DNA of 64,000 nucleotides, taken from NCBI GenBank assembly GCA_028708575.1, contig JAQVYQ010000001.1, positions 116-64,115 on the forward strand, in the 5' to 3' direction. The position numbers and the translations under genes are program-made. Shown piece by piece: positions 3,055 through 35,086 of this stretch; positions within the stretch are counted from its first letter, which is position 1; each line of letters begins with the position of its first letter. The stretch comes from Tissierellia bacterium (GTDB taxonomy: Bacteria > Bacillota > Clostridia > Tissierellales > Tissierellaceae). The notes under the pieces were generated by a model. That model did not search any database and was not told the origin of the DNA. It was given only the letters and a program-made list of their open reading frames with translations.

Positions 3055-4683
3055 ATGGATATTCAATTTTTTGGCTCGGCAAAAATGGTTACTGGTTCTA
3101 ATTTTTTAATTACTACTGATAAATCTAAGATATTAGTAGATTGCGGAATGTTTCAAGGAAGTAATGAAATAGAGAAGATGAATTTCTTGGATTTTCCATT
3201 TGATCCTAAAGAGATAAATTTCTTGATTTTAACTCATTCCCATATAGACCATAGTGGTAGAATACCAAAATTAGTCAAAGATGGATTTAGAGGGAGAATT
3301 ATAAGTACAAAAGCAACTCGAGATTTATGTGAAATAATGCTTAAAGATAGTGCAAATATACAAGAGTCTGATGCACGTTGGGAAAACAAAAAAAGAATTA
3401 GGGCAGGATTACCTGAAGTTGAACCATTATATACAACTGCAGATGCAGAAGCTAGTTTAAAGTATTTTGAGCCTTATTATTATAATCAAGATATAAATAT
3501 AGGTGATGATATTTCTATACGATTTAAGGACGCTGGACATATACTAGGTTCATCTATACTAGAGTTATGGGTTAAAGAAGGTGTAAGCAATACTAAAATT
3601 GTTTTTTCTGGAGATTTAGGAATGCCAGGAAGACCTATCATAAATAATCCTGAATTTATTGAAGATGCAGACTATGTAATTATGGAGTCTACATATGGCG
3701 ATACTATACATGAACCATTTGAAGAGAGTACAAAAGAATTAATTGAAATAATAAACAGAACAGCTTTAAGAGGTGGTACTGTTCTTATTCCCTCCTTTGC
3801 TATTGGAAGAACACAAGAATTGATTCATGAACTTAACAAATATTATGAATACAATGATGTTGAAGAATATATGAAAATTCCAATATATGTGGATAGTCCA
3901 CTTGGTGTAAGTGCAACAGAAGTATTTGTAAAGAATTCCTATGACTTTAATAAAGAAACTAGAGAAATGATTTTAAAAGGAGATAATCCTTTTACATTTA
4001 GTAATTTGAGATATATAAAAAGTCAGGAAGAATCAATATTATTGAATAAAGCTAATTACCCTAAAGTAATAATATCCTCAAGTGGAATGGCTACAGCAGG
4101 TAGAATAAGGCATCATCTTAAACATAATTTGTGGAATCCATTAAATAGTTTAATCTTTATTGGATATCAAGCAGAAGGATCCTTAGGAAGAATACTACTA
4201 AATGGAGCTAAAAAAGTAAAATTATTAGGTGAAGAAATAAATGTTGCACTAGAAATATATGATTTAGAAGGATTTTCTGCCCATGCAGATCAAAAAATGT
4301 TGATTAAGTGGTTGTCTAGATTTAGTAAAAAGCCAAAAAAAGTATTTTTAGTACATGGAGAAGAAGAATCATCAAAAGCCCTATCAGATATTATTGAAAA
4401 CGAGTTAAATATTGAGACAATTATCCCAAGTATTGGTGATAAAATAAATATAGAAAAAGACTACGTAGAAATGTGGAAGAGTACAAACATGAGTTCTCTT
4501 AAATTAAAAGAAGATATTGAAAATGAACTAGGAAATGTATATAATAAATTTGATGCTTTATTTAATAGAACTGACGATATATATGATGATAAAGTATTGG
4601 AGAAAAACTACCATAGTTTAAAAAACAAACTTATTGAGATTCAAGGACAATTAATGGATCTTAATATCTTAATAAGTAAATAA
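3055..4683 (+). CDS. MBL-fold metallo-hydrolase with beta-CASP/RNA-specificity domain (putative ribonuclease)
   Basis: THSHIDHSG, DAGHILGS, FSGDLG, MESTYGD, FSAHAD, VHGE motifs. Confidence 0.9.
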   Translation: MDIQFFGSAKMVTGSNFLITTDKSKILVDCGMFQGSNEIEKMNFLDFPFDPKEINFLILTHSHIDHSGRIPKLVKDGFRGRIISTKATRDLCEIMLKDSANIQESDARWENKKRIRAGLPEVEPLYTTADAEASLKYFEPYYYNQDINIGDDISIRFKDAGHILGSSILELWVKEGVSNTKIVFSGDLGMPGRPIINNPEFIEDADYVIMESTYGDTIHEPFEESTKELIEIINRTALRGGTVLIPSFAIGRTQELIHELNKYYEYNDVEEYMKIPIYVDSPLGVSATEVFVKNSYDFNKETREMILKGDNPFTFSNLRYIKSQEESILLNKANYPKVIISSSGMATAGRIRHHLKHNLWNPLNSLIFIGYQAEGSLGRILLNGAKKVKLLGEEINVALEIYDLEGFSAHADQKMLIKWLSRFSKKPKKVFLVHGEEESSKALSDIIENELNIETIIPSIGDKINIEKDYVEMWKSTNMSSLKLKEDIENELGNVYNKFDALFNRTDDIYDDKVLEKNYHSLKNKLIEIQGQLMDLNILISK

Positions 4684-4907: not shown

Positions 4908-4935
4908 TTGAATTTATTGAAATGTATGTTATTAT
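4908..4935 (+). promoter_or_regulatory. Probable sigmaA promoter of the glutamate mutase operon
   Basis: TTGAAT-N16-TATTAT with extended -10 TG. Confidence 0.45.
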
Positions 4936-5009: not shown

Positions 5010-5426
5010 GTGGAAAAAAAGAAAATAGTATTAGGAGTAATAGGCTCGGATTGCCATGCTGTAGGCAATAAAATTTTAGATTATTCCCTTACAGACGCAG
5101 GATTCAAAGTAGTAAATATAGGTGTATTGTCACCACAAGAAGACTTCATAAATGCAGCTTTAGAAACTAGTGCAGAAGCAATATTTGTATCTTCTCTTTA
5201 TGGTCATGGAGAGATTGACTGCAAGGGATTAAGAGAAAAATGTGATGAAGCTGGACTAAACAATATTTTGTTATATGTTGGAGGAAATATTGTAGTTGGT
5301 AAGCAAGAATGGAAAGACGTTGAGAAAAGATTTTTAGATATGGGTTTTGATAGGGTATATCCACCAGGAACATCTGCTGAAAAAGGTATTAGCGACTTAC
5401 GAGAAGATTTAGGCAAAAGAGGATAG
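5010..5426 (+). CDS. glmS: Glutamate (methylaspartate) mutase S subunit, B12-binding
   Basis: DxHxxG motif (SDCHAVG), SSLYGHG, VGGN; GGAGG RBS; also named mutS/mamA. Confidence 0.96.
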
Positions 5427-5432
5427 GGTGAT

Positions 5433-6818
5433 ATGATGGATGCATATCTTTTTATAGACTTTGGCAGTACGTTTACCAAACTTACACTAGTGGATATAGA
5501 AAGAGAAGAAATTATTGCAACTGAAAAGGCTTATACAACAGTCGAAACTGATGTTACTATTGGATATGATAAAGCTTTAAAAAAGCTTAAAGAAAAGGTA
5601 GCGGTTGAGTATAATATTACAAATAAGTTAGCATGTTCATCTGCTGCTGGTGGATTAAAAATAATTGCTATAGGATTTGTTCCAGAACTCACTTCTGAAG
5701 CTGCTAAAAGAGCAGCATTAGGTGCGGGAGCAAAAGTAATAAAGACATATAGTTTCAAACTCAATGAATCTGAATTAGAAGAGATTAAAAATTCTAATGC
5801 AGATATAATATTACTTTCTGGTGGAACAGATGGCGGTAACAGTGAAACAATAATTCATAATGCAGAGATGATTAATAAATTCAATCTAAAGATACCAGTA
5901 GTAGTTGCAGGAAACAAAAGTTGTGATGATGAAATAAAAAGTATATTCGGTGATAATATTGAATATCATATCACAGAAAATACAATGCCAAATCTAAATC
6001 ATATAAATGTTGATCCGGCGAGAGAAACCATTAGAAATATATTTATGGAAAAAATTGTACATGCTAAGGGCATGGAAAATGTAGAAGATTCAATTTCTGG
6101 AATATTAATGCCTACACCAGCATCTGTTTTAAAGGCCGCGGAAGTTTTGTCTATGGGTTCAAGAGATGAAGAAGGTATAGGCGATCTAGCAGTTCTAGAT
6201 ATTGGTGGAGCAACCACTGATGTCCACTCAATTGCAGATGGGCATCCAACTAATGCTGGAATATTCTTGAGAGGACTAGAAGAACCTCATTCTAAAAGAA
6301 CTGTCGAAGGAGACTTAGGAATGAGATATTCTGCCATATCAGTATTTGAAGCCGCTGGAGCAAAAACTATAAAGAAATATTTAAAATATGATGATTTGGA
6401 TATTGAAGAAGAAGTTAATAATAGAAATACAAATACAAGTTTTGTTGCTATTGATGAAAAAGAAATAGATTTCGATGAGGCTATGGCAAAAGTCTGTGCA
6501 AATATTTCTATGAAAAGACATGCTGGTTTTTTAGACACTGTATATTCTCCTCTTGGAAATATCCATACCCAAGAAGGGAAAGATTTAATGAAATTACCAT
6601 ATTTACTTGGAACAGGTGGGGTAATTGTAAACAGTAGAAATCCTAAAGATATTCTTTCAGCAGCAACATTTACAATGGAAGACCCTACATCTTTAAAGCC
6701 AAGGGAACCAAAAATTTTGCTTGATAAAGAGTATATATTATCAGCTATGGGGCTACTCGCAATGGTTAATGCCAATATGGCTGTTCGGATGTTAAAAAAA
6801 TATATTGTTGAAATATAG
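5433..6818 (+). CDS. glmL: Glutamate mutase accessory/reactivating protein GlmL (MutL)
   Basis: [39 protein letters not shown] motifs; between S and E subunits. Confidence 0.95.
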
Positions 6819-6829
6819 GAGGAGAATTC

Positions 6830-8278
6830 ATGAATTTAAAGAATAAAAGAATTTCTGATGAAGATTTTTTTAAAGAAAGAGAAGAGGTGTTGGTTGGCTG
6901 GCCAACAGGAAAAGAAGTAGATCTTCAAGAAGCAGTAGATTATTTAAAAAAAGTTCCAGTGGAAAAGAACTTTGCTAAAGTATTAGAAAATGCAAAGAAT
7001 GCTGGAATTACATTAGCTCAACCAAGAGCAGGTGTACCTTTGATAGATAAGCATATTGAATTATTAAATCACTTATCTAAAGAGGGTGGAGCAGATCTTT
7101 TACCTTCAACAATAGATGCATATTCAAGATTAAATAGATATGCTGAATGTCAAGTTGGTATAGATGAATCCATCAAAGCAGGCAGAGCAATGATGAATGG
7201 ATTTCCAGCAGTTAACCACGGCGTAAAAGGATGTAGAGAAGTATATGAAAGTGTAGATAAACCATTACAAGCAAGACATGGTACTCCAGATTCTAGACTT
7301 TTAGCTGAAATAATCCACGCTGGTGGTTGGACTTCAAACGAAGGTGGCGGAATTTCTTATAATGTTCCATATGCAAAAGATGTATCTATTGAAAAATCAC
7401 TTTCTGACTGGATGTATTGTGATAGACTTGTTGGATTCTACGCAGAGCAAGGTATTATCATAAACAGAGAACCATTTGGACCATTAACTGGTACATTAGT
7501 ACCTCCATCAATGGCAATTGTAACAGGAATTATTGAAGCACTTTTAGCTGCTGAACAAGGAGTAAAGAGTATTACTGTAGGTTTCGGACAATGTGGAAAT
7601 CTTGTTCAAGACGTTGCTGCTATAAGAGCTCTAGAAGAATTAACAGAAGAATACTTAAAAGAATATGGATATGATGATGTTGTTGTAACAACAGTATTCC
7701 ATCAATGGATGGGAGGATTCCCAGAAGATGAGGCAAAAGCATTTGGCGTTATTTCCTTTGGTTCAGCTACTGCAGCATTAGCAGGAGCAACAAAGGTTAT
7801 TGTTAAGACTCCTCATGAAGCTATAGGAATACCTACTAAGGAAGCAAATGCTTCTGGTATAAAAGCTACTAAAATGGTATTAAACATGTTAGAAGGTCAA
7901 AGATTACCATCAAGTAAAGCGTTAGAAGCTGAAATAGAAATGATTAAAGCAGAGACAAAATGTATTATGGATAAAACATTTGAACTTGGTAATGGTGATT
8001 TAATTGTAGGTACAGTTAAAGGATTTGAAACTGGTGTTATTGATATTCCATTTGCTCCATCAAAATACAATGCTGGTAAAATTATGCCTGCTAGAGATAA
8101 TAACGGAGCAGTTAGATATTTCATGACTGGTAATGTACCTTTTACTAAAGATATACTTGATTTCAATAAAGCAAAATTAGAAGAAAGGGCAAAATTTGAG
8201 AAGAGAGAAATAAGCTTCCAAATGACAATAGATGATATTTTTGCCGTAGGTAAAGGAAAACTTATAGGAAGACCGTAG
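6830..8278 (+). CDS. glmE: Glutamate mutase E (epsilon) subunit
   Basis: [44 protein letters not shown] motifs. Confidence 0.97.
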
Positions 8279-8316
8279 TTAAAGAAAAATCATTGAAAAA
8301 ATCGGAGGTAATGTAA

Positions 8317-9564
8317 ATGAAAATTGTTGATTTAGTATGTTCTGAAGGAAAAACAGGTTTTTATTTTGATGACCAAAAGGCTATCAAAGCTGGTGCTAAA
8401 CATGATGGATTATTTTATCTTGGTGAACCACAATTAGAAGGTTTTACTTCTATTAGGCAAGCAGGAGAAAGTATTTCAGTTATGTTAATACTTGAAGATG
8501 GTCAAGTAGCTTATGGAGATTGTGCTGCAGTACAATACTCAGGAGCTGGCGGACGTGACCCATTATTCTTAGCTAAAGATTTTATTCCTGTTATTGAAAA
8601 TGACATCAAACCATTATTAATTGGTAGAGAACTTAATAGTTTTAAAGCATTAGCTGATGAATTTGATCACTTAGAAGTAAATGGTAAGAGATTACACACA
8701 GCTATTAGATATGGTATTACTCAAGCTTTATTAGATGCTGTAGCAAAAACAAAGAAAACAACTATGGCAGAAGTAGTAAGAGAAGAATATAACACAGGTG
8801 TTGAAATAAAAAGAATTCCTATATTTACTCAATCAGGTGATGATAGATATATTAACGCTGACAAGATGATAATCAAAAGTGCTGACGTATTACCTCACGG
8901 CTTATTCAACAGTGTTGAAGAAAAGTTAGGTTTTAAAGGTGAAAAGTTATTAGCTTATGTTGAATGGTTAAGAGACAGAGTAAAACAATATAAGACAACA
9001 GAAGATTACAACCCTATATTCCATATAGATGTTTATGGAACTATAGGAGATGCTTTTAACAATGATACTAAAGTTATGGCAGACTACTTAAAAACTCTTG
9101 AAGAAGCAGCTAAACCATATGCATTAAGAATAGAAGGACCTATGGATGTAGGAAATAGAGAAGGTCAAATTAAAGCAATGGCTGATTTAAGAGTAGAATT
9201 AGATACAAGAGGAATAAATGTAGAATTAGTTGCAGACGAATGGTGTAATACACTTCAAGATGTAAAAGATTTTACTGATAACAAAGCTGGTCATATGATT
9301 CAAATCAAAACTCCTGACCTAGGTGGAGTTAACAACACAATTGAAGCCGTTTTATATTGTAATGAAAAGGGTTTAGGAGCATATACTGGTGGTACTTGTA
9401 ATGAAACAAATAGAAGTGCTGAAATTTGCTGTAATATAGTATTAGCTTGTGGAGCAACTCAAGTACTTGCAAAACCAGGTATGGGTGTTGATGAAGGATA
9501 TATGTTAATCAATAATGAAATGAATAGAGTTGTAGCTTTAGCTAACAGAAATAAAGCTAACTAA
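8317..9564 (+). CDS. mal: Methylaspartate ammonia-lyase
   Basis: GDCAAVQYSGAGGRDP, HIDVYG, IEGPMD, VADEWCNT, GGTCNET, AKPGMG motifs. Confidence 0.97.
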   Translation: MKIVDLVCSEGKTGFYFDDQKAIKAGAKHDGLFYLGEPQLEGFTSIRQAGESISVMLILEDGQVAYGDCAAVQYSGAGGRDPLFLAKDFIPVIENDIKPLLIGRELNSFKALADEFDHLEVNGKRLHTAIRYGITQALLDAVAKTKKTTMAEVVREEYNTGVEIKRIPIFTQSGDDRYINADKMIIKSADVLPHGLFNSVEEKLGFKGEKLLAYVEWLRDRVKQYKTTEDYNPIFHIDVYGTIGDAFNNDTKVMADYLKTLEEAAKPYALRIEGPMDVGNREGQIKAMADLRVELDTRGINVELVADEWCNTLQDVKDFTDNKAGHMIQIKTPDLGGVNNTIEAVLYCNEKGLGAYTGGTCNETNRSAEICCNIVLACGATQVLAKPGMGVDEGYMLINNEMNRVVALANRNKAN

Positions 9565-9591
9565 TATTTTTATAGGAAGACAAAACATTGG

Positions 9592-9628
9592 AATCAGTGG
9601 GAAAGCAAATTTCCCTCTGATTTTGTTT
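9592..9628 (+). terminator. Intra-operon stem-loop between mal and the hydratase genes
   Basis: AATCAGTGGGAAA-gcaaa-TTTCCCTCTGATT (one mismatch) then TTGTTT. Confidence 0.55.
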
Positions 9629-9656
9629 AAGTAAAAAAATTAGAAGGAAGTGTGAA

Positions 9657-10499
9657 ATGAGAACTATAGACGCGAGTAAGATAACTTCTGAAGTTAAAAG
9701 AATGGTAATGGAAGCCAATTACTTTCTCCCTAAAGATGTAATGCAAGCTCTAAAAGATGCTCGGGAAAATGATGATTGGGAACTATCAAGAGATATACTT
9801 GATAAGATTATTGAAAACGCAAAAATTGCAAATGATGAAAATGTTCCTATGTGTCAAGATACAGGTATGGTAGTTGCATTTGTTAAAATTGGACAAGAAG
9901 TAATAATAGAAAATGGATTTATTGAAGATGCAATTAACGAAGGTGTAAGACAAGGTTATGAAGAAGGATTTTTAAGAAAATCCGTAGTAGGAGATCCATT
10001 AGATAGAGTTAATACTAAAGATAATACTCCAGCAGTAGTACACTATGAAGTAGTACCTGGAGATAAGTTAAATATAATGGTTGCTTCAAAAGGATTTGGC
10101 TCTGAAAACATGTCAAGACTTGCAATGCTTAAACCTTCTGATGGATTAGAAGGAGTAAAAAAATTCATATTAGAAACTGTTGAATTAGCTGGTCCGAATC
10201 CATGTCCTCCAATTGTTGTAGGCGTAGGTGTTGGCGGTACTTTTGACAAAGTAACACTTTTAGCTAAAAAAGCACTTATGAGGGAACTTGATAAATATAA
10301 TGAAAATTCTTTCTATGCTGATTTGGAAAAGGAAATGCTTGAAAAAATAAACGCACTAGGTATAGGACCACAAGGATTTGGTGGGAAAACAACTGCTTTA
10401 AAGGTAAACATTGAGTATTATCCAACACATATTGCTGGTTTACCTGTAGCTGTAAATATTAATTGCCATGCTACTAGGCATAAAGAAGTTACACTTTAG
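9657..10499 (+). CDS. Class I fumarate hydratase-like alpha subunit; probable mesaconase alpha by context
   Basis: CQDTG, KGFGSEN, PCPP, GGTFD, NCHATRH Fe-S hydro-lyase motifs; directly after mal. Confidence 0.9.
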   Translation: MRTIDASKITSEVKRMVMEANYFLPKDVMQALKDARENDDWELSRDILDKIIENAKIANDENVPMCQDTGMVVAFVKIGQEVIIENGFIEDAINEGVRQGYEEGFLRKSVVGDPLDRVNTKDNTPAVVHYEVVPGDKLNIMVASKGFGSENMSRLAMLKPSDGLEGVKKFILETVELAGPNPCPPIVVGVGVGGTFDKVTLLAKKALMRELDKYNENSFYADLEKEMLEKINALGIGPQGFGGKTTALKVNIEYYPTHIAGLPVAVNINCHATRHKEVTL

Positions 10500-10509
10500 G
10501 AGGGTTGAA

Positions 10510-11070
10510 ATGGATTATAAATTGAAAACACCGTTTACTAGAGAAGACTTAAAAGATTTAAAAGCGGGAGATAATGTTTATATTACTGGATATATGTACA
10601 CTGCAAGAGATGCAGCGCATAAAAGATTAGTTGATTTAATTGAACAAGGAAAGGAATTACCATTAGATGTTAAGGGAGCTTGTATATACTATGTAGGACC
10701 AGCTCCTGCAAAAGAAGGTCAAGCACTTGGTTCAGCTGGACCAACTACAAGTTATAGAATGGATGCTTATAGCCCACAATTATTGGATTTAGGATTAATG
10801 GGCATGGTTGGTAAAGGGAAAAGAGGACCAGAAGTAGTAGATAAGATTGTTGAACATGGGGCTGTATATTTTGCAGCTATCGGTGGTGCAGCAGCTTTAA
10901 TTGCAAAGTCAATTAAGACTGCTGAAATAATAGCTTATGAAGACTTGGGGGCAGAAGCTATTAGAAAAATTTATGCGGAAGATTTTCCAGCAACAGTAGT
11001 TATAGACTCAAAAGGAAACAATCTATACGAATTAGGTAGAAAGGAGTATCTAAATGGCAGTAATAAATAA
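10510..11070 (+). CDS. Class I fumarate hydratase-like beta subunit; probable mesaconase beta
   Basis: TARDAAHKR, AGPTTSYRMD, GKGKR, EDLGAEAI; ATG 10510 has the RBS. Confidence 0.9.
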   Translation: MDYKLKTPFTREDLKDLKAGDNVYITGYMYTARDAAHKRLVDLIEQGKELPLDVKGACIYYVGPAPAKEGQALGSAGPTTSYRMDAYSPQLLDLGLMGMVGKGKRGPEVVDKIVEHGAVYFAAIGGAAALIAKSIKTAEIIAYEDLGAEAIRKIYAEDFPATVVIDSKGNNLYELGRKEYLNGSNK

Positions 11071-11329
11071 GATGGCAAAAGCTGGTTCTGTTGAATCAAA
11101 TGACATTCTTGTTATGATGTCACCAGGTGATGGGGGAATCGACTTAGAAATTGAAAGCATCGTATATAATCAATATGGTGATGATATCAAAAAAACAATA
11201 TTAGATACTTTGAAAGAAGAAAATATAACTGATGTAAAAGTAATTATAAATGATAAGGGAGCCTTAGACTTTACAATTAGAGCGAGGGTTAAAGCCTGTA
11301 TAAGAAGGGGGAGTGTTCAAGATGTATAA
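11054..11329 (+). CDS. citD: Citrate/citramalate lyase acyl carrier protein (gamma)
   Basis: AGSVESND (prosthetic-group Ser), DKGALDFTIRARV. Confidence 0.9.
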   Translation: MAVINKMAKAGSVESNDILVMMSPGDGGIDLEIESIVYNQYGDDIKKTILDTLKEENITDVKVIINDKGALDFTIRARVKACIRRGSVQDV

Positions 11330-12179
11330 AACATTACTTTTTATGCCAGGAAACAATCCAGGAATGCTCGTCAGTTCAGATGTATTAGGAACAGATGCGG
11401 TACTTATAGATTTAGAAGATGCAGTAGCTATAAATGAAAAAGATGCAGCTAGAGTATTAGTAGTAGAATATTTAAAGACATTTAAAAACCAAACAGATGT
11501 ATTTGTTAGAATAAATCCACTTGATACTCCATTTTTCTATGATGATTTAGATGCTATTATTGATTCAGAAATTGAAGGTATAGTATTACCTAAGGCAAGT
11601 GTTGAATCTATGGAAGCATTGGATAAATATTTAACTGAAAAAAATTCAGATTTTAAAATTATAGGCTTAATAGAAACCTCATTAGGCTTAGAAATGGCTA
11701 TGGAAATCTTAAGCAAATCTAAAAAAGTTATTGGAGTATTACTAGGAGCAGAAGATTTAACATTGGATTTGGGAGCTAAAAGAACTAAAGAATCAGAAGA
11801 AATCGCTTATGCGAGATCTAAAATTATTGCTATATCTAAAGCTTTACAAATAGAAGCTATAGATACACCTTTTACAGATACAGATGATTATGAAGGATTA
11901 AAGAAAGATTCATTAAATGCTAAGGATTTAGGTATGACCGGAAAGGCACTTATTAGTCCAAGACATGTAGACATTGTGAATAATGTATTTGCTCCATCAC
12001 AAGCTGAAATAGAATATGCATTAAGAGTAGTAGAAGGTCAAAAAGAAGCAATACAAATAGGTTTAGGTGCTTTCTCCTTAGATGGTAAAATGGTTGATGC
12101 ACCAATAATTAAAAGAGCTCTTAATTTGTTAAAAATGAGTGGAGATTATAAGGAGGAATATGATGAATTACTTAAATAA
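11322..12179 (+). CDS. citE: Citryl/citramalyl-ACP lyase beta subunit (HpcH/HpaI family)
   Basis: LFMPGNNP, IDLEDAV, VRINPL, LIET, GAEDL, ISPRH, GKMVDAP. Confidence 0.9.
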   Translation: MYKTLLFMPGNNPGMLVSSDVLGTDAVLIDLEDAVAINEKDAARVLVVEYLKTFKNQTDVFVRINPLDTPFFYDDLDAIIDSEIEGIVLPKASVESMEALDKYLTEKNSDFKIIGLIETSLGLEMAMEILSKSKKVIGVLLGAEDLTLDLGAKRTKESEEIAYARSKIIAISKALQIEAIDTPFTDTDDYEGLKKDSLNAKDLGMTGKALISPRHVDIVNNVFAPSQAEIEYALRVVEGQKEAIQIGLGAFSLDGKMVDAPIIKRALNLLKMSGDYKEEYDELLK

Positions 12180-13641
12180 TTTTAATATTGATTCCATAAA
12201 AGTCATAGATAAGTCCGAATATCCCACAAAGGGTCAAAAGAAAAATAAAGTAACGGAAAATATAGATGATCTATTTAAAGAATTAAACATAAAAGACGGA
12301 TCTGTATTATCTTTCCATCACCATCTAAGAAATGGGGACCATGTTACAAATTTAATTTTGAAACAAGTTCAAAAATTAGGAATAAAGGATATTACACTTG
12401 TTGCAAGTTCTTTGTTCCCAACAAATAAGGAACTTATTCCATTGCTAAAAGATGGAACTATAAAAAATGTTGTAGCATCATATATATCAGGTGAACTAGC
12501 AGAAGCAATTAGCCATGGAGAACTAAAAGGCAATATTATAATGCAATCTCATGGTGGAAGAGCAAGATCTATCGCCAATGGAGAATTAAAAATAGATGTT
12601 GCATTTATTGCATCACCAAGTAGTGATGATAAAGGAAATATATCTGGAGTTAATGGTATAAACTCTTGTGGTTCAATGGGATATGCAATCGCAGATAGTA
12701 TGATGTCAGAAAAGGTTGTTGCTGTTACTGATTCATTAGTAGAATATCCAAATTATCCTACTGATATAACTGAAGACTATGTAGACCATATACTACTAGT
12801 AGACTCTATTGGTTTAAAATCAGGTATAGTATCAGGTACAACTCAGGTTACCAAAGATCCAATAGGACTAAAGATTGCCAAAGACACACTAAAAGTTATG
12901 GAAGCATCAGGACTCTTAAAGGAAGGATTTAGCTATCAAAGTGGTGCAGGGGGTATATCATTAGCAGTTACATCTTTCCTAAGGGATTACATGCTTGAAA
13001 ATGATTTAAAAGGCGGATTCGCATCAGGTGGTATTACTGGATATCTAACAGACATGCTTGAAGAAGGATTATTTGAATCATTATATGATGTTCAATGCTT
13101 TGATTTAGAAGCTATAGAATCATTAAAGAAAAATCCAACTCACTTAAGAATGAGTGCATCACAATATGGTAACCCAGAAGTATCTGCAGTTGTAGATAAT
13201 CTTGATATTGTAATACTTGGAGCAACCGAAATAGATACAGATTTCAACGTAAATGTAATGACAGGTTCTCATGGTATGTTAATGGGCGGATCAGGTGGAC
13301 ATCAAGATACTGCAGCTGGTAGCAAATTATCCATTATAGTATCAAAATTGTTCTCATCTAGAATTCCTTTGATAAAGGATAAAGTTGATGTTATAACAAC
13401 ACCAGGAACTACTGTTGATGTTTTAGTTACCGAAAGAGGTATCTGCGTAAATCCATTAAGACAGGATTTAATAAAACAATTTAACGAGGCAAAATTAAAT
13501 GTTGTAGATATCAAAGAATTAAAAGAGTATTCAGAGGAAATAATGGGTAAAGCTAAACCTATTGAGAAAACAGACAGAGTAATTGGTATTTCTGAATATA
13601 GGGACGGTAAAATATTAGATTATATATACGAAGTTAAGTAA
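12160..13641 (+). CDS. citF: Citrate/citramalate lyase alpha subunit (ACP transferase)
   Basis: SFHHHLRNGD, SHGGRAR, QSGAGG, GGSGGHQD, TTPG, EYRDG; GGAGG RBS before ATG 12160/12163. Confidence 0.92.
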   Translation: MMNYLNNFNIDSIKVIDKSEYPTKGQKKNKVTENIDDLFKELNIKDGSVLSFHHHLRNGDHVTNLILKQVQKLGIKDITLVASSLFPTNKELIPLLKDGTIKNVVASYISGELAEAISHGELKGNIIMQSHGGRARSIANGELKIDVAFIASPSSDDKGNISGVNGINSCGSMGYAIADSMMSEKVVAVTDSLVEYPNYPTDITEDYVDHILLVDSIGLKSGIVSGTTQVTKDPIGLKIAKDTLKVMEASGLLKEGFSYQSGAGGISLAVTSFLRDYMLENDLKGGFASGGITGYLTDMLEEGLFESLYDVQCFDLEAIESLKKNPTHLRMSASQYGNPEVSAVVDNLDIVILGATEIDTDFNVNVMTGSHGMLMGGSGGHQDTAAGSKLSIIVSKLFSSRIPLIKDKVDVITTPGTTVDVLVTERGICVNPLRQDLIKQFNEAKLNVVDIKELKEYSEEIMGKAKPIEKTDRVIGISEYRDGKILDYIYEVK

Positions 13642-13708
13642 TGAGTTAGTAAAAACTAAATGATTAATAAAAGAGTTGCTATGCAACTCTTTTATTATGT
13701 ATATAAAT

Positions 13709-14767
13709 ATGGTAAAATTAGATATATTTTTAAAAGGTTGTGATACTATTTTTTTTAGTGATAATTTAAATCAAAATAATCCATTTGAAGTAGAAGAAAT
13801 AAAGAAGTTCTTAAGTATTTTTGGTGTAGAATATGATTTTCCAGATATTACATATGTAATTCGAGATAATGATGAAATAATAGCAACAGGTTCTGCATCA
13901 GGAAATATACTTAAATACTTTTTTGCTAAATGTACTTATAGTGGGCAAGGAGCAATAGGTATAATATATAATTCCTTATTAGAGTATGTAATAGAAAAAG
14001 GTTATAATTCTTATTTCATATTTACTACACCTAATAATAAGGCAATATTTAGTTCTCTTGGGCTAAATGAAGTATATTCAACGAATAGCGTAATTCTTTT
14101 AGAAGGTGGCTTTTACAATTATTCTAATTGGATAAGAAAAGTAAAAGATTATGTAGGTGTGAAAAATGGAAAGCGTGGTGTCATTGTTGTAAATTGCAAT
14201 CCAATGACATTAGGACATAAGTATTTAATGAATGAAGCTTTAAAAAAAGTAGATGAACTTATTATATTTGTAGTTGAAGAAGATTTGTCAATATTTCCAT
14301 TTGAGACAAGATATAATATTGTTGTTAATGAATTTAAAGGTGATGATAGAGTAAAAATTATTAAAGGTGGACCTTACATAATTTCTAGAGGAACATTCCC
14401 AACTTACTTTATCAAACAAAAAGATAAAATGTTAGATATATATACAGAATTAGATGCTAGCATATTTGCTAATAAAATTGCAAAAGATTTAGAGATTGAT
14501 ATTAGATTTCTAGGCTCAGAACCTATAGATGTAGTTACATTAGCCTATAATAAATCCTTAAAAGAAATATTAGAGGATAAAGATATTGAAGTAAAGATTG
14601 TTGATAGAAAAGAAGAGGCAAATGAACCAATTAGTGCATCCTATGTAAGAAAGCTTTTAAAAGAAGATAAGGTTGAAGATGCATATAAATTGCTCCCTAA
14701 AAGTACAATTGAGTTTTTAAATTCTAAAGAAGGAATGCAAATTATTGATAAAATAAAAACTGTATAA
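13709..14767 (+). CDS. citC: [Citrate/citramalate lyase] ligase (ACP acetylating); start uncertain
   Basis: VNCNPMTLGH, FVVEED, GGPYIISRGTFPTYF, RFLGSEP, ISASYVR; best SD points to ATT 13748 (see findings). Confidence 0.88.
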   Translation: MVKLDIFLKGCDTIFFSDNLNQNNPFEVEEIKKFLSIFGVEYDFPDITYVIRDNDEIIATGSASGNILKYFFAKCTYSGQGAIGIIYNSLLEYVIEKGYNSYFIFTTPNNKAIFSSLGLNEVYSTNSVILLEGGFYNYSNWIRKVKDYVGVKNGKRGVIVVNCNPMTLGHKYLMNEALKKVDELIIFVVEEDLSIFPFETRYNIVVNEFKGDDRVKIIKGGPYIISRGTFPTYFIKQKDKMLDIYTELDASIFANKIAKDLEIDIRFLGSEPIDVVTLAYNKSLKEILEDKDIEVKIVDRKEEANEPISASYVRKLLKEDKVEDAYKLLPKSTIEFLNSKEGMQIIDKIKTV

Positions 14768-14780
14768 TAAAATATATGAT

Positions 14781-14817
14781 AAAAAGGAGTAAGACCATAC
14801 TGGTTTTGCTCCTTTTT
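14781..14817 (+). terminator. Intrinsic terminator ending the glutamate fermentation locus
   Basis: AAAAAGGAGTAAGACC-atact-GGTTTTGCTCCTTTTT. Confidence 0.85.
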
Positions 14818-15062
14818 AACTTTATTCACCACTGAGTGCTACTGCATATTTGGGTAACGGCCAAACAATTAGACCTTTATACAAGCTATTAAAAACAAAT
14901 GATTTACTATGTTGTATTAACAAGTTACAACTGAGATTTAAAATTACCATAAGATTGAAAAATGTAGTATTATATACATGTGAAGTTTAGTAAAAAACCA
15001 AGTGTGACAGTTATGAAATTGAATTTTCTAATATTAGTCAAATATTGTTGGAGGAATAAATT

Positions 15063-29991: not shown

Positions 29992-30145
29992 TTTGTTTAT
30001 GCCAATGTTCGTCAAAAAACAAACAATATTTATCTGTTTATGTACAGGGCAACTGTTTAGTGTTATAATATTAGGGAAATGCCATGAATTATTGGTTTTT
30101 TCTTTTATGATTATTATAAAATATATAGTAAAGAGGTGGAATTCA

Positions 30146-31477
30146 TTGAGTACAATACTTGAAAATCTTACTTTTAAAGGTGGAGTTCATATTCCTGAGA
30201 ATAAAGACTTAACTAGTTCAAAAGCTATTGAAAGAGCTAGAGAGCCAAAAACAGTATATATACCTTTACAACAACATGTAGGCGCACCTTGTGAAGCCAT
30301 AGTAAAAGTTGGCGATAATGTAAAAGTAGGACAAAAAATTGGAGATTCAAAGGCAGGATTAACAGCACCAGTTCATTCTAGCGTATCTGGAGTAGTAAAG
30401 AGTATTAAAAAGATGCATACAACACAGGGGATAAAATGTGATTGTATTGAAATTGAATCAGATGGTCTAAACGAATTAGATGAATCAATAGGCGTTAAAG
30501 GCGATTTGACCAATCTTTCTAAGGAAGATATTGTAAACAAAATCAGAGAAGCAGGAATTGTAGGATTAGGTGGAGCCGGTTTCCCAACACATTCTAAATT
30601 GACTTCAGCTGCAGATAGCAATATAGATTCTTTTATACTTAATGGTGCAGAATGTGAACCATACTTAACATGTGATCACAGAATAATGATTGAAGAGCCA
30701 GAAAAGGTTATTTTTGGTCTTGAAGTTTTTATGAAATATTTTGATAATTGTGCTGGGTACATAGCTATTGAAGACAATAAAAAAGATGCTATTGATATTT
30801 TAAGCAAAGCATCTAATGACAAAAACATTAAAATTGCAAGTTTAAAAACTAAATTTCCACAAGGAGAATCATATAGGATAGTAGATTCTGTATTGAAAAG
30901 GGTTGTTCCTCAAGGTGGACGATGTAAGGATGCCAATTCAGTAGTAACAAATATTAATACTGCTTATGCTGTTGCTGAGGTAATTCAGGATAGTAAACCT
31001 TTATATGAAAGGGTAATTACAGTAACTGGAAGTGGCATTAAAGAGCCTAAGAATTTATTGGTCAAAATAGGTTCGACTATTGGTGAAATAATAGAGCAAT
31101 GTGGTGGCTTTAAAGGCAAACCTGGTAAAATAATTGCTGGTGGACCAATGACTGGAATAGCACAATATACACTTGATGCACCAATAGTTAAAGAAGTTTC
31201 TGGAATAGTCGTGTTTACAGAGGAAGAAGTAAAGATAGACAAAGTTCAACCATGTATAAAATGTGGTAAATGTATTGAAGTATGTCCTGTATTTTTAGAG
31301 CCATTATATATTTCAGCTTATTCTCTAGTTGGCAATATGGAAATGGCGGAAAAATATGATGCTTTAGCATGTGTATCTTGTGGAAGCTGTTCATATGCAT
31401 GTCCATCTAAACGTCCTCTTAAAGAATCAATTAATCATGCACAAAATGAAATAAAATCCAATAGAAAAAAATCGTAG
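30146..31477 (+). CDS. rnfC: Rnf electron transport complex subunit C
   Basis: TFKGGVH, GLGGAGFPT, NGAECEPYLTCD, two 4Fe-4S motifs (CIKCGKCIEVCP, CVSCGSCSYACP); GAGGTG RBS before TTG 30146 (ORF-track start 29993 is over-extended). Confidence 0.95.
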   Translation: MSTILENLTFKGGVHIPENKDLTSSKAIERAREPKTVYIPLQQHVGAPCEAIVKVGDNVKVGQKIGDSKAGLTAPVHSSVSGVVKSIKKMHTTQGIKCDCIEIESDGLNELDESIGVKGDLTNLSKEDIVNKIREAGIVGLGGAGFPTHSKLTSAADSNIDSFILNGAECEPYLTCDHRIMIEEPEKVIFGLEVFMKYFDNCAGYIAIEDNKKDAIDILSKASNDKNIKIASLKTKFPQGESYRIVDSVLKRVVPQGGRCKDANSVVTNINTAYAVAEVIQDSKPLYERVITVTGSGIKEPKNLLVKIGSTIGEIIEQCGGFKGKPGKIIAGGPMTGIAQYTLDAPIVKEVSGIVVFTEEEVKIDKVQPCIKCGKCIEVCPVFLEPLYISAYSLVGNMEMAEKYDALACVSCGSCSYACPSKRPLKESINHAQNEIKSNRKKS

Positions 31478-31504
31478 CTAATAGTAGCTTAAGGAGGAGA
31501 AAAA

Positions 31505-32473
31505 ATGGAAGGAATGAATCAAGATTCAGTAACCTTAGATAATTTGCTTATCGTATCAGAAGGTCCACATATCCGTTCTAACCAGACGGTTAGAAGAACA
31601 ATGTTAGATGTAATAATTGCTTTGGCACCTGCTATGGTAGGAAGTATATATTTCTTTGGCTTTGATGCTATAAGATTAATTTTAGTTTCTTGTATATCAT
31701 GTGTTGTTTTTGAAGCTGGTATCCAAAAGCTATTAAAAAGAGAAGTCAGAATAGGAGATTTAAGTGCAGTTGTTACTGGATTACTTTTAGCTTTTAACTT
31801 ACCAGCACCAACTCCATGGTGGGTTGCTGTATTTGGAGCTGCATTTGCAATTATTATTGTAAAGGAATTATTTGGAGGAATAGGTTCTAATTTTATGAAC
31901 CCTGCTTTAGGAGCAAGAGCTGCAATAATGGCGTCATGGCCAGAAATTGCAACAAATTATGTAAATCCAGATGGTATCAGTTCAGCGACACCTCTTGCTA
32001 TATTAAAAGCAGGAGAAGGGTCATTACCTTCATTACAAAGAATGTTTATTGGCGATATTGGTGGAGTTATTGGAGAAACATCGGCTTTATTATTATTAAT
32101 TGGCGCTGTTTATTTAATAATTAGAAAAGTAATAGATTGGAAAATTCCAGTATTTTATATAGGTACAACTGCTATTTTATTATTATTATTAGGCGTAGAA
32201 GCAAATAATATAATTTATCATATTTTAGCTGGAGGATTAATACTTGGAGCTTTCTTTATGGCTACTGATTATTCAACATCACCGGTTACGCCAAAGGGAA
32301 GAATAATCTTTGCTATAGGCTGTGGTTTATTAACTGCATTAATTAGAGTAAAAGGAAGTATGGCAGAATCAGTATCTTATTCTATACTTCTAATGAATGT
32401 AGCTGCTCCAGTTATTGAGAAATGGACTAAGCCAAGAGTATTTGGGGAGGTAAAGAAAAATGAAAGCCGTTAG
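31505..32473 (+). CDS. rnfD: Rnf subunit D
   Basis: GPHIR, DLSAVVTG, FGGIGSNFMNPAL, SSATPL (FMN-Thr), FFMATDYSTSP. Confidence 0.95.
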   Translation: MEGMNQDSVTLDNLLIVSEGPHIRSNQTVRRTMLDVIIALAPAMVGSIYFFGFDAIRLILVSCISCVVFEAGIQKLLKREVRIGDLSAVVTGLLLAFNLPAPTPWWVAVFGAAFAIIIVKELFGGIGSNFMNPALGARAAIMASWPEIATNYVNPDGISSATPLAILKAGEGSLPSLQRMFIGDIGGVIGETSALLLLIGAVYLIIRKVIDWKIPVFYIGTTAILLLLLGVEANNIIYHILAGGLILGAFFMATDYSTSPVTPKGRIIFAIGCGLLTALIRVKGSMAESVSYSILLMNVAAPVIEKWTKPRVFGEVKKNESR

Positions 32474-33035
32474 ATATGCATTAGTATTACTTATTGTAGG
32501 TGTGGTTGCAGGTGGAGTGTTAGCATACTCTAACAGTTTAACAGCGCCGATTATCGCAGAACAAGAGAAAGCAGGAAGTTTTGCAGCATTTCAAGAAATA
32601 TTTACAGATGCTGATGACTTTGTTGCTATAGATGAAGCATTACTTAGTAAAATAATTGCTCAACATGGAACTATACAGGAAATACTTGAAGTTAAATCAG
32701 GCGATGATATAGTTGCCTATGTGTTTAATACTATTTCAGGTGGATATGGTGGAGGAATTACAACAATATCAGGTTTTAATTTAGATGGTACTGTTGAGGG
32801 TATTAGAATAACTGAAAACTCAGAGACTCCTGGTTTGGGTACGAGAGTTGTTGATGACCCAGCTTATCAGGAATCATATATAGGTAAATCTATTTCAGAA
32901 GAATTAGTACTATCAGGTTCACCAGCTTCAGATAGTGAAGTATTATTACTTTCAGGAGCAACGGTTTCTTCACAAGGTGTACTTAATGGGGTAAATGACG
33001 CAAGAGAAGCTTTTGTTAACTTTCTTGCGAATTAG
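32460..33035 (+). CDS. rnfG: Rnf subunit G
   Basis: N-terminal anchor, GYGG, ETPGLG, SGAT (FMN-Thr). Confidence 0.93.
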   Translation: MKAVRYALVLLIVGVVAGGVLAYSNSLTAPIIAEQEKAGSFAAFQEIFTDADDFVAIDEALLSKIIAQHGTIQEILEVKSGDDIVAYVFNTISGGYGGGITTISGFNLDGTVEGIRITENSETPGLGTRVVDDPAYQESYIGKSISEELVLSGSPASDSEVLLLSGATVSSQGVLNGVNDAREAFVNFLAN

Positions 33036-33053
33036 TAATTGGAGGTGTCTAAT

Positions 33054-33656
33054 ATGAAATTTTCAGAAATAATTAAAAATGGGATAATTAATGAGAATCC
33101 AATTTTCGTTCAACTTGTAGGTATGTGTTCTGTACTAGCGGTTTCTTCTAGTGCTACTAATAGCTTAGCAATGGGTTTTTCTGTTATGGCAGTTTTAACT
33201 TGTTCTAATATTGTAATATCACTTTTAAGAAAGTTTATACCAGATGAGATTCGTATACCTGTATTTATTGTTGTAATAGCTACATTTGTTACTATAGTAG
33301 ATATGTTTTTAAAGGCATATGCACCAGATATATATGGTGCGCTAGGAATATTTATACCACTTATAGTTGTAAACTGTGTAATTTTAGCTAGAGCTGAAGC
33401 ATTTGCTTATTCTAACGGAGTTATTTTATCAGCTATAGATGGTCTAAGTATGGGTGTTGGTTTTACTTTAGCGATAACGATATTAGGTATTTTAAGAGAG
33501 TTTTTCGGTGCTGGATCAATATTTGGTATAGCTATATATGGTGAAAGTATGATAAAACCAGCAGGGATATTTGTTGCTGCGCCAGGGGCATTTATACTGT
33601 TAGGAATACTTGTAGGTATATTTAGAACATTGCAAAAGAAAGTAGCTGCAAATTAA
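33054..33656 (+). CDS. rnfE: Rnf subunit E
   Basis: ENPIFVQLVGMCSVLAV, IPLIVVNC, LGILRE; GGAGGTG RBS before ATG 33054. Confidence 0.95.
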   Translation: MKFSEIIKNGIINENPIFVQLVGMCSVLAVSSSATNSLAMGFSVMAVLTCSNIVISLLRKFIPDEIRIPVFIVVIATFVTIVDMFLKAYAPDIYGALGIFIPLIVVNCVILARAEAFAYSNGVILSAIDGLSMGVGFTLAITILGILREFFGAGSIFGIAIYGESMIKPAGIFVAAPGAFILLGILVGIFRTLQKKVAAN

Positions 33657-33680
33657 TATAAATAGAGGAGGAAGAATAAA

Positions 33681-34256
33681 ATGAGTAGTATTTTTACTAT
33701 ATTGATATCAACAATACTTGTCAACAACTACGTATTTGCTAAGTTCTTAGGGATCTGTCCTTTTCTAGGTGTATCTGGCAAAATGGAAACAGCTACTGGT
33801 ATGGGTGTTGCTGTAACATTTGTTACGACTTTAGCAGGTATAGTTACATATATATTACAAAAATATGTTCTTGATTCTTTAGGACTTGGATATTTACAAA
33901 CAATTGTATTTATACTAGTTATTGCTTCATTAGTACAATTTGTTGAAATGGCAATAAAAAAAATGAGCCCTACATTATATAATGCATTAGGAGTTTATTT
34001 ACCTTTAATCACAACAAATTGTATAGTATTAGGTGTTTCAATATTAAACATTCAAGAAGGTTATACATTGATTGAAACAATTACGAGTTCAGTTGGTGCT
34101 GCTCTGGGATTTTTCTTGGCATTGGTATTAATGGCAGGTTTAAGAGAAAAATTAGAACTTGCTGATATACCGGAGGCATTAGAAGGATTTCCAATTACGT
34201 TGATAGCTACTGGTTTAATGTCCATTGCCTTTTCAGGCTTTGCTGGACTTGTTTAG
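33681..34256 (+). CDS. rnfA: Rnf subunit A
   Basis: NNYVFAKFLGICPFLGVS, LPLITTNC, LMAGLRE. Confidence 0.96.
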   Translation: MSSIFTILISTILVNNYVFAKFLGICPFLGVSGKMETATGMGVAVTFVTTLAGIVTYILQKYVLDSLGLGYLQTIVFILVIASLVQFVEMAIKKMSPTLYNALGVYLPLITTNCIVLGVSILNIQEGYTLIETITSSVGAALGFFLALVLMAGLREKLELADIPEALEGFPITLIATGLMSIAFSGFAGLV

Positions 34257-34267
34257 GGGGTGAAGAT

Positions 34268-35086
34268 ATGACAGATATAATTAATCCTGTATTGGTATTA
34301 GGGAGTCTAGCTGCAGCTTTTGGCGTAATATTAGCAATTGCATCAAAGGTATTCTTTGTTCCTACTGATCCAAAGGTTGCACAATTACAAAATGTTTTAC
34401 CAGGAGCTAATTGCGGTGCATGTGGTTATCCAGGATGTTCTGGCTTAGCAAATGCATTAGCAGCAGGAAAAGCACCAGTAAATGCATGTAGTATTGGTGG
34501 TCAAAAAGTCGCAGATTTGGTAGCTGATATTTTAGGAGCCGATTCTGCAGATATAGATAAAGAAGTTGCTGTTGTTTTATGCCAAGGCGATTGTGATAAA
34601 GCCAAAGATAAGTATATATATGAAGGAATACAAGATTGTAGAATATCAGATAAACTATCAGATGGACAAAAATCTTGTTCATATGGATGTTTAGGATGTG
34701 GAACTTGTCGAGATGTATGTCAATTTGATGCTATTGATATGATTAACGGTATAGCATATATTGATAGAGAAAAATGCACAGCTTGTAGAAAATGTGTTGA
34801 AGTTTGTCCTAAACATATAATCGAAATGGTACCTTATGATAATCATGTAGCAGTAAAATGTAAGAGTGAAGATCCAGGTAAAGTTGTTAGAGGCAACTGT
34901 GAAATAGGATGTATCGGATGTAAAATATGCGTTAAAAATTGTCCAGAAGATGCATTTTCATTTGAAAATAATCTTGCAAAGATTAATTATGAGAAGTGTA
35001 CAAACTGTTTAGTATGTGTAGAAAAATGTCCTACAAAATGTATCAATCTTATGGTCGAAGAAGAATCTGATAATATAGCAATTTAA
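34268..35086 (+). CDS. rnfB: Rnf subunit B (polyferredoxin)
   Basis: LPGANCGACGYPGC plus several CxxCxxCxxxCP motifs. Confidence 0.95.
   Translation: MTDIINPVLVLGSLAAAFGVILAIASKVFFVPTDPKVAQLQNVLPGANCGACGYPGCSGLANALAAGKAPVNACSIGGQKVADLVADILGADSADIDKEVAVVLCQGDCDKAKDKYIYEGIQDCRISDKLSDGQKSCSYGCLGCGTCRDVCQFDAIDMINGIAYIDREKCTACRKCVEVCPKHIIEMVPYDNHVAVKCKSEDPGKVVRGNCEIGCIGCKICVKNCPEDAFSFENNLAKINYEKCTNCLVCVEKCPTKCINLMVEEESDNIAI

Follow-up and report, generated by a model that had tools for sequence, protein, structure and literature searches.

The fermentation of glutamate via 3-methylaspartate has been assigned to gene clusters of clostridia and other anaerobes that encode GlmS, MutL, GlmE, Mal, MesAB, CitDEF, and CitCXG (Kronen & Berg 2015, PMC4682846, section 18, Fig 4). 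The citramalate lyase of Clostridium tetanomorphum is a three-subunit acyl carrier protein (ACP) complex that resembles citrate lyase (Buckel & Bobi 1976, cited in PMC4682846, PMC8473912), and both the methylaspartate pathway and the nature of citramalate lyase as an ACP complex are also covered elsewhere (PMC8473912). An operon of the same type is located at positions 5010-14767 of a 64,000-nucleotide stretch of contig JAQVYQ010000001.1 (hereafter the window) from a Tissierellia bacterium of the family Tissierellaceae (GenBank assembly GCA_028708575.1). Judging from its sequence, the operon very probably encodes the fermentation of glutamate to pyruvate, acetate, and ammonia, with the genes named "fumarase" coding for a mesaconase and those named "citrate lyase" for an ACP-dependent citramalate lyase. 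An earlier note on the same DNA had arrived at this reading, which is now supported by gene linkage, a separate citrate lyase locus, a sequence signature, and an alternation with the unrelated citramalate lyase CmlAB. The reading is correct but already published (Kronen & Berg 2015, PMC4682846), and the biology is textbook knowledge; what is new here is a Tissierellaceae member of the published operon type, to which the signature and the alternation between CitDEF and CmlAB are modest additions.

All ten genes of the operon are encoded on the plus strand and either overlap or are separated by gaps of no more than 92 bp. Gene families were assigned by comparing NCBIfam scores with the curated cut-offs, with Pfam in agreement, which confirmed the gene content and order claimed in the earlier note (glmS-glmL-glmE-mal, a fumarase-like pair, and citD-E-F-C) for each of the ten genes. 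The features are as follows.

4908-4935, + strand: candidate sigma-70 promoter, about 75 bp upstream of glmS (TTGAAT-16-TATTAT with TG); a weak candidate from a consensus scan only
5010-5426, + strand: glmS, glutamate (methylaspartate) mutase, B12-binding subunit S (NF002612, 226 bits, cut-off 110; PF02310)
5433-6818, + strand: glmL (mutL), glutamate mutase accessory/reactivating protein (NF040745, 662 bits, cut-off 475)
6830-8278, + strand: glmE, glutamate mutase catalytic subunit E (TIGR01503, 804 bits, cut-off 390)
8317-9564, + strand: mal, 3-methylaspartate ammonia-lyase (TIGR01502, 645 bits, cut-off 286)
9657-10499, + strand: mesA, split class I Fe-S hydro-lyase, alpha subunit, probable mesaconase (NF004885, 438 bits, cut-off 276; PF05681)
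10468-11070, + strand: mesB, beta subunit of the hydro-lyase (NF005310, 310 bits, cut-off 238; PF05683)
11054-11329, + strand: citD-like acyl carrier protein, gamma subunit (TIGR01608, 88 bits, cut-off 63.5)
11313-12179, + strand: citE-like beta subunit, probable citramalyl-ACP lyase (TIGR01588, 258 bits, below the cut-off of 443.4)
12139-13641, + strand: citF-like alpha subunit, probable citramalate:acetyl-ACP transferase (TIGR01584, 560 bits, cut-off 501)
13676-14767, + strand: citC-like acetate:SH-ACP ligase (TIGR00124, 241 bits, below the cut-off of 262)
14780-14818, + strand: intrinsic terminator hairpin at the end of the operon, with a stem of 18 pairs and a T-rich tail after it, directly after citC

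Compared with the clusters of C. tetanomorphum and Clostridium tetani (glmS-mutL-glmE-mal-mesAB-citDEF-citCXG; PMC4682846), the operon comprises the same genes with the same proposed functions, the first nine of them in the same order. It differs in its origin from Tissierellaceae, in the presence of citC only, with citX and citG at a separate citrate lyase locus, and in the absence of an adjoining GntR gene. As expected of a methylaspartate-pathway operon, GlmS, GlmE, GlmL, and Mal all score above their NCBIfam equivalog cut-offs, and a two-component Fe-S hydratase is encoded together with mal. The homologs of CitD, CitE, and CitF retain the carrier serine and the catalytic residues of the lyase, as expected of an ACP-dependent citramalate lyase (EC 4.1.3.22). 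Several properties of citrate (pro-3S)-lyase are missing: CitE falls below the TIGR01588 cut-off, an arginine signature is lost, and neither the operon nor its flanks encode a citrate transporter, an oxaloacetate decarboxylase, or a CitAB or CitI regulator. The earlier note had already reported the absence of transporter, decarboxylase, and CitAB genes, which is correct for the operon and the regions on either side; the citrate symporter of this genome is encoded on another contig.

In the proposed pathway, GlmS and GlmE would convert L-glutamate to (2S,3S)-3-methylaspartate with the help of adenosylcobalamin, with GlmL maintaining the activity of the mutase, and Mal would remove ammonia to yield mesaconate, which the split class I Fe-S hydratase MesAB would turn into (S)-citramalate. 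CitF would then exchange the acetyl group bound to CitD for citramalate, which frees acetate, and the resulting citramalyl-ACP would be split by CitE into pyruvate and regenerated acetyl-ACP; deacetylated carrier would be re-acetylated by CitC. For the synthesis and attachment of its prosthetic group, CitD would depend on CitG and CitX from the separate citrate lyase locus. Pyruvate is predicted to enter pyruvate:ferredoxin oxidoreductase (PFOR), and the reduced ferredoxin would be passed on to an Rnf complex. PFOR is encoded in the genome, and a complete rnfCDGEAB operon is located at window positions 29993-35086, 15 kb downstream of the glutamate operon; its RnfG (32460-33035) has no NCBIfam match at E<=1e-30. 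No convincing 2-hydroxyglutaryl-CoA dehydratase was found in the genome, which, together with the presence of PFOR and Rnf, is consistent with a fermentation of glutamate via the methylaspartate route only.

The genome (2.0 Mb) also encodes a canonical citrate lyase on a different contig (C40; locus L005:3163-15759). This locus comprises genes for a GntR regulator, citD, citE (473 bits), citF (818 bits), citG, a divergently oriented CitMHS citrate:proton symporter, and citX, and has no citC of its own. Its subunits share 42% (CitD), 38% (CitE), and 49% (CitF) identity with those of the window. The possibility that C40 is a contamination was ruled out by its GC content and tetranucleotide usage, which are typical of the genome, and by the presence of both paralogs in genomes of the same genus. 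A genome-wide search recovered single copies of citC (in the window) and of citG and citX (on C40, with neither gene in the glutamate operon). CitD of the window retains the prosthetic-group serine in an E-S-N-D motif, as aligned with the CitD proteins of Klebsiella, Enterococcus, and C40, and therefore needs CitG and CitX. Because citG and citX are present only on C40 and citC only in the window, the two lyase systems appear to share CitG, CitX, and CitC, which would make this genome an example of two paralogous lyase systems with a common set of maturation enzymes. The region upstream of the citrate lyase genes on C40 carries TctABC-like transporter genes, a PrpD-like gene, and a homolog of the LarA family of malate racemases, which scores just under the cut-off (458 bits; cut-off, 500).

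The closest relatives of the window CitE stem from genomes of Tissierellaceae and Tissierellia, with identities of up to 92%, and every sufficiently long Tissierellaceae locus that was fetched shares all ten genes and their order. The CitE scores within the family are cleanly bimodal (234-268 vs 465-495 bits); among the 81 Tissierellaceae genomes sampled, the low-scoring type is present in 30 and the high-scoring type in 13, with both types in 12, which include all three genomes of the same genus. In Oscillospiraceae-like genomes, the genes are arranged in a different order (citDEF-mesAB-glmSLE-mal), and other lineages have glmSLE-mal-citDEF-citCXG or mal-mesAB-citFED-citCXG. Peptoclostridium acidaminophilum encodes citDEF-gntR-glmSLE-mal beside hut genes, with its CitE named only "CoA ester lyase" by the NCBI Prokaryotic Genome Annotation Pipeline (PGAP). 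The linkage of citDEF to the genes of the methylaspartate pathway thus arose, or was retained, in several lineages. On the megaplasmid of P. acidaminophilum (NZ_CP007453.1; L101), hutU, ftcD, and hutI directly adjoin the cluster citXG-citC / citDEF-gntR-glmSLE-mal-cobA, which joins the breakdown of histidine to the fermentation of glutamate; no mesAB genes are present in this stretch. In another genome (G086; locus L059, contig C25), mal is represented by two fragments (contig positions 47770-48291 and 52638-53357) that are apparently separated by about 4.3 kb of inserted DNA, whereas the gene is intact in the sister genome G127 (L060).

A phylogenetic analysis was based on 60 CitE-bearing loci, which were fetched from a sample of 401 genomes of the phylum and labelled by their gene neighborhoods. 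The trees of CitE and CitF recover the same group of 19 members around the window copy, with Shimodaira-Hasegawa-like approximate likelihood-ratio test (SH-aLRT) support values of 92 and 100. Of the 14 loci linked to mal, 13 belong to this group; the 10 loci linked to CitMHS or Tct transporters all lie outside it, and the C40 copy clusters with the transporter-linked citrate lyases in both trees. Three loci linked to mal or mesAB (L063, L064, and L067) form a separate lineage outside the group. In this comparison, which the earlier note had suggested, the window copy stands apart from C40 and the transporter-linked citrate lyases, but its group also includes citrate-like loci from genomes without mal. 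A single clade of citramalate lyases was ruled out, as mal-linked CitEF are spread over three or more lineages, and citrate-like contexts are also represented in the main group. The score of the citE model was likewise rejected as a classifier, because the values range without a break from 120 to 473 bits across the 401 genomes and a score below the cut-off is not diagnostic at the scale of the phylum; with many other CitE proteins of Firmicutes below the TIGR01588 cut-off, the shortfall of the window CitE is by itself weak evidence.

The strongest contextual argument for CitDEF as the citramalate lyase of this genome is an either/or pattern of CitDEF and CmlAB beside mal. CmlAB of Raoultella planticola has been used as a direct citramalate lyase (preprint, bioRxiv 10.64898/2026.01.16.699985). 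It consists of a DUF1446/AtuA and a DUF4387 protein (PDB 9ERQ, 9EVF) and is not homologous to CitDEF, although the proposed reaction and the position in the pathway are the same. In genome G362, the genes adjacent to mal match the PDB 9ERQ/9EVF chains "Citramalate lyase, subunit A (cmlA)" and "subunit B (cmlB)" with E values of 1e-155 and 2e-28. Among the 79 mal-bearing genomes in the phylum sample, a hand tally counted about 48 in which a gene of the CmlA family lies no more than 10 kb from mal; none of these encodes citDEF in that region. A CitE homolog is located within 5 kb of mal in only six of the 79; four of these six, including the present genome, have no CmlA-family gene, and the other two carry one on a different contig. 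The AtuA/DUF1446 family (PF07287) had no match in the present genome, in a search that was validated on five other genomes. Within the phylum, the last step of the pathway thus falls to either CitDEF or CmlAB, and the two lyases do not occur together beside mal; in most mal-bearing genomes the neighbor is CmlAB. Some mal-bearing genomes (e.g., G004, G137, G264, G367, G250, G277, G120, and G158) lack both citDEF and CmlAB in the vicinity of mal and encode only stand-alone CitE-like proteins elsewhere, which may reflect a coenzyme A (CoA)-dependent cleavage of citramalate. In four others (G066, G152, G153, and G221), no citDEF, CmlAB, or stand-alone CitE-like gene was seen.

A further line of evidence comes from alignment columns that are conserved among the enzymes in a citrate context and changed in every lineage linked to mal or mes. 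The window enzyme shares with the CitDEF of Klebsiella pneumoniae, Escherichia coli, and lactic acid bacteria the three-subunit architecture, the carrier serine, the CitC ligase, and the catalytic arginine, glutamate, and aspartate of CitE (R64, E121, and D148 in the window). It differs from citrate lyases in the loss of the arginine of the RLPK motif of CitE (residue 95 in C40), which is replaced by valine, leucine, or methionine (Val91 in the window), and in the SG-x-RG motif of CitF (Gly127 and Arg129 in C40), which is changed to Tyr/Phe-x-Ser/Thr/Ala/Val/Leu (Tyr115 and Ser117 in the window, aligned with Gly125 and Arg127 of PDB 2HJ0). These differences are accompanied by scores of CitE and CitC below the equivalog cut-offs and by a location inside a methylaspartate operon without transporter or oxaloacetate decarboxylase genes. 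The arginine forms are present in K. pneumoniae (citS-oadGAB/citCDEFG), Enterococcus faecium, and Secundilactobacillus (citM-citP-citCDEFXG type), in the C40 copy, and in all other members of the canonical group. The forms without arginine occur in all five lineages linked to mal or mes, including the mal-linked enzyme of P. acidaminophilum; two or more of these lineages are separate in the phylogeny. The changes in CitE and CitF always co-occur in the 41 clusters in which both subunits are readable.

The same position of CitE is occupied by valine and methionine, respectively, in RipC and CLYBL, two (S)-citramalyl-CoA lyases of solved structure (PDB alignments), and the window CitE is matched by the NCBIfam model RipC_Ccl for the citramalyl-CoA lyase of the itaconate pathway at 188 bits. 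RipC/Ccl of Yersinia (3QLL), human CLYBL (5VXC), and Rv2498c of Mycobacterium tuberculosis (6AQ4) have the fold and the catalytic residues in common with the window CitE but are stand-alone enzymes acting on free CoA thioesters, whereas the window CitE would depend on the carrier CitD and the transferase CitF. The residues reported to contact the methyl group in Rv2498c are Met133, Gly135, and Val181. The loss of a cationic side chain in both acyl-recognizing proteins would be expected if the substrate bore a methyl group in place of a carboxymethyl arm. It is conceivable, though somewhat doubtful, that the paired substitutions in CitE and CitF represent a switch in specificity from citrate to citramalate, in which the charged partner of the additional carboxymethyl arm of citrate was lost. 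If this were true, they would provide a sequence rule for the re-annotation of "citrate lyases", and the loci with the same signature in genomes without mal (see below) would serve the uptake and cleavage of citramalate or another 2-hydroxy-2-alkyl acid rather than the fermentation of citrate. In any event, the signature is a two-position candidate for separating citrate lyases from citramalate lyases that an enzymologist can test.

Adjoining genes located 92 bp after mal encode the domains PF05681 and PF05683 of the split hydratase. A paralogous pair with 52% and 49% identity to MesAB is present on contig C104 (positions 11996-14691, minus strand), where it directly adjoins a LarA-like racemase homolog; the two may form a module for the conversion of D/L-malate to fumarate. 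Among the rows listed for the phylum sample, at least 16 of the 79 genomes with mal also encode a class I fumarase no more than 10 kb from that gene. The profile match of mesB begins at residue 15, which is why its true start may lie slightly downstream of the listed ATG.

Several observations weigh against the assignment of the operon to mesaconase and citramalate lyase. Class I fumarases are promiscuous and accept also mesaconate (PMC4682846), so that the sequence of MesAB holds nothing that would tell a mesaconase from a fumarase and the assignment is based on gene context. A literature search found no recombinant assay of a CitDEF of this type, whose specificity is deduced from the lines of evidence above. 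CitF exceeds the NCBI equivalog cut-off for citrate lyase (560 vs 501 bits), and position 91 of CitE and positions 115 and 117 of CitF were placed by sequence alignment only. The main caveat, however, concerns three members of the 19-member group that stem from genomes without mal (L055:1588-11711, L068:2140-12303, and L082:2820-12747). These citC-DEF-XG loci carry the arginine-less signature and adjoin a CitA/CitB-like two-component system, a 2HCT transporter, and a gene of the malic enzyme family, to which the oxaloacetate decarboxylase CitM also belongs, a context that looks like citrate fermentation. The identity of their malic enzyme and 2HCT genes with CitM/CitP of Enterococcus or CitS of Klebsiella is only 32-49%, which is not decisive for orthology. 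In L068, a pair of genes for the large and small subunits of an aconitase-family protein follows directly after citF.

It is these loci that suggest that citDEFC might encode a promiscuous lyase for citramalate and citrate, and that the arginine-less signature marks a lineage of Firmicute citrate lyases rather than a change of substrate. The interleaving of mal-linked lineages with L055-type loci in both trees and the score of CitF above its equivalog cut-off point in the same direction. Nevertheless, such a lyase is unlikely, because a complete citrate lyase of the canonical type, along with a symporter of its own, is already encoded in the genome, and because the losses of arginine recur in the separate mal- or mes-linked lineage of L063, L064, and L067, always in CitE and CitF together. 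Cross-reactivity is also not automatic: extracts of citrate-grown E. coli have high citrate lyase activity but no citramalate lyase activity (PMC4682846). Less probable still is a second citrate lyase that merely happens to lie beside the glutamate genes, with citramalate cleaved by another enzyme. The automated family names and the absence of citG and citX from the operon would fit such a scenario, but the cit genes overlap with mesB in a single terminator-bounded operon, citDEF is found linked to mal in five or more lineages that differ in gene order, and both CitE and CitC score below the cut-offs for citrate lyase. Moreover, the genome encodes neither CmlAB nor a stand-alone lyase of the CitE type, as CitE homologs (E<=0.001) were found only in the two citDEF sets; therefore, no other candidate exists among the known types of citramalate and citramalyl-CoA lyases.

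A non-catabolic role of the cluster, either in biosynthesis or in the use of mesaconate, citramalate, or methylaspartate from outside the cell by an organism that does not grow on glutamate, can be regarded as highly improbable. Such a role would be in line with the lack of a glutamate transporter and a regulator in the operon and with the involvement of mesaconase in the C5-dicarboxylate metabolism of other bacteria (PMC4682846). However, the operon begins with a full set of glutamate mutase genes, including the reactivase, and the genome has no convincing alternative hydroxyglutarate route but encodes PFOR and Rnf, as expected of a glutamate fermenter. Glutamate fermentation via mesaconase and citramalate lyase thus remains the preferred interpretation of the operon.

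Tissierellaceae are found in anaerobic digesters and gut communities. In metabolic reconstructions of such habitats, the labels citrate lyase and fumarase hide a complete route of amino acid fermentation. The mislabelling by annotation pipelines predicted in the earlier note does occur, as these are the family names that are assigned automatically.

The regions flanking the operon are unrelated to the pathway. Downstream, they encode an MlrC/M81-like hydrolase and an orphan protein of 749 amino acids. Upstream, no riboswitch or other Rfam element precedes glmS at the Rfam gathering thresholds, and promoter-like sites in the operon region are no more numerous than in shuffled sequences. Farther upstream, there are genes for a pot-type polyamine ABC transporter (potBCD-like) and a beta-CASP nuclease. 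The latter, a beta-CASP/metallo-beta-lactamase (MBL) nuclease of 542 amino acids (window positions 3055-4683), has its best NCBIfam match to the Cas14 model of type VII CRISPR systems, albeit with a score (454 bits) far under the cut-off of 800, and is retained 5' of the operon in most loci of Tissierellaceae.

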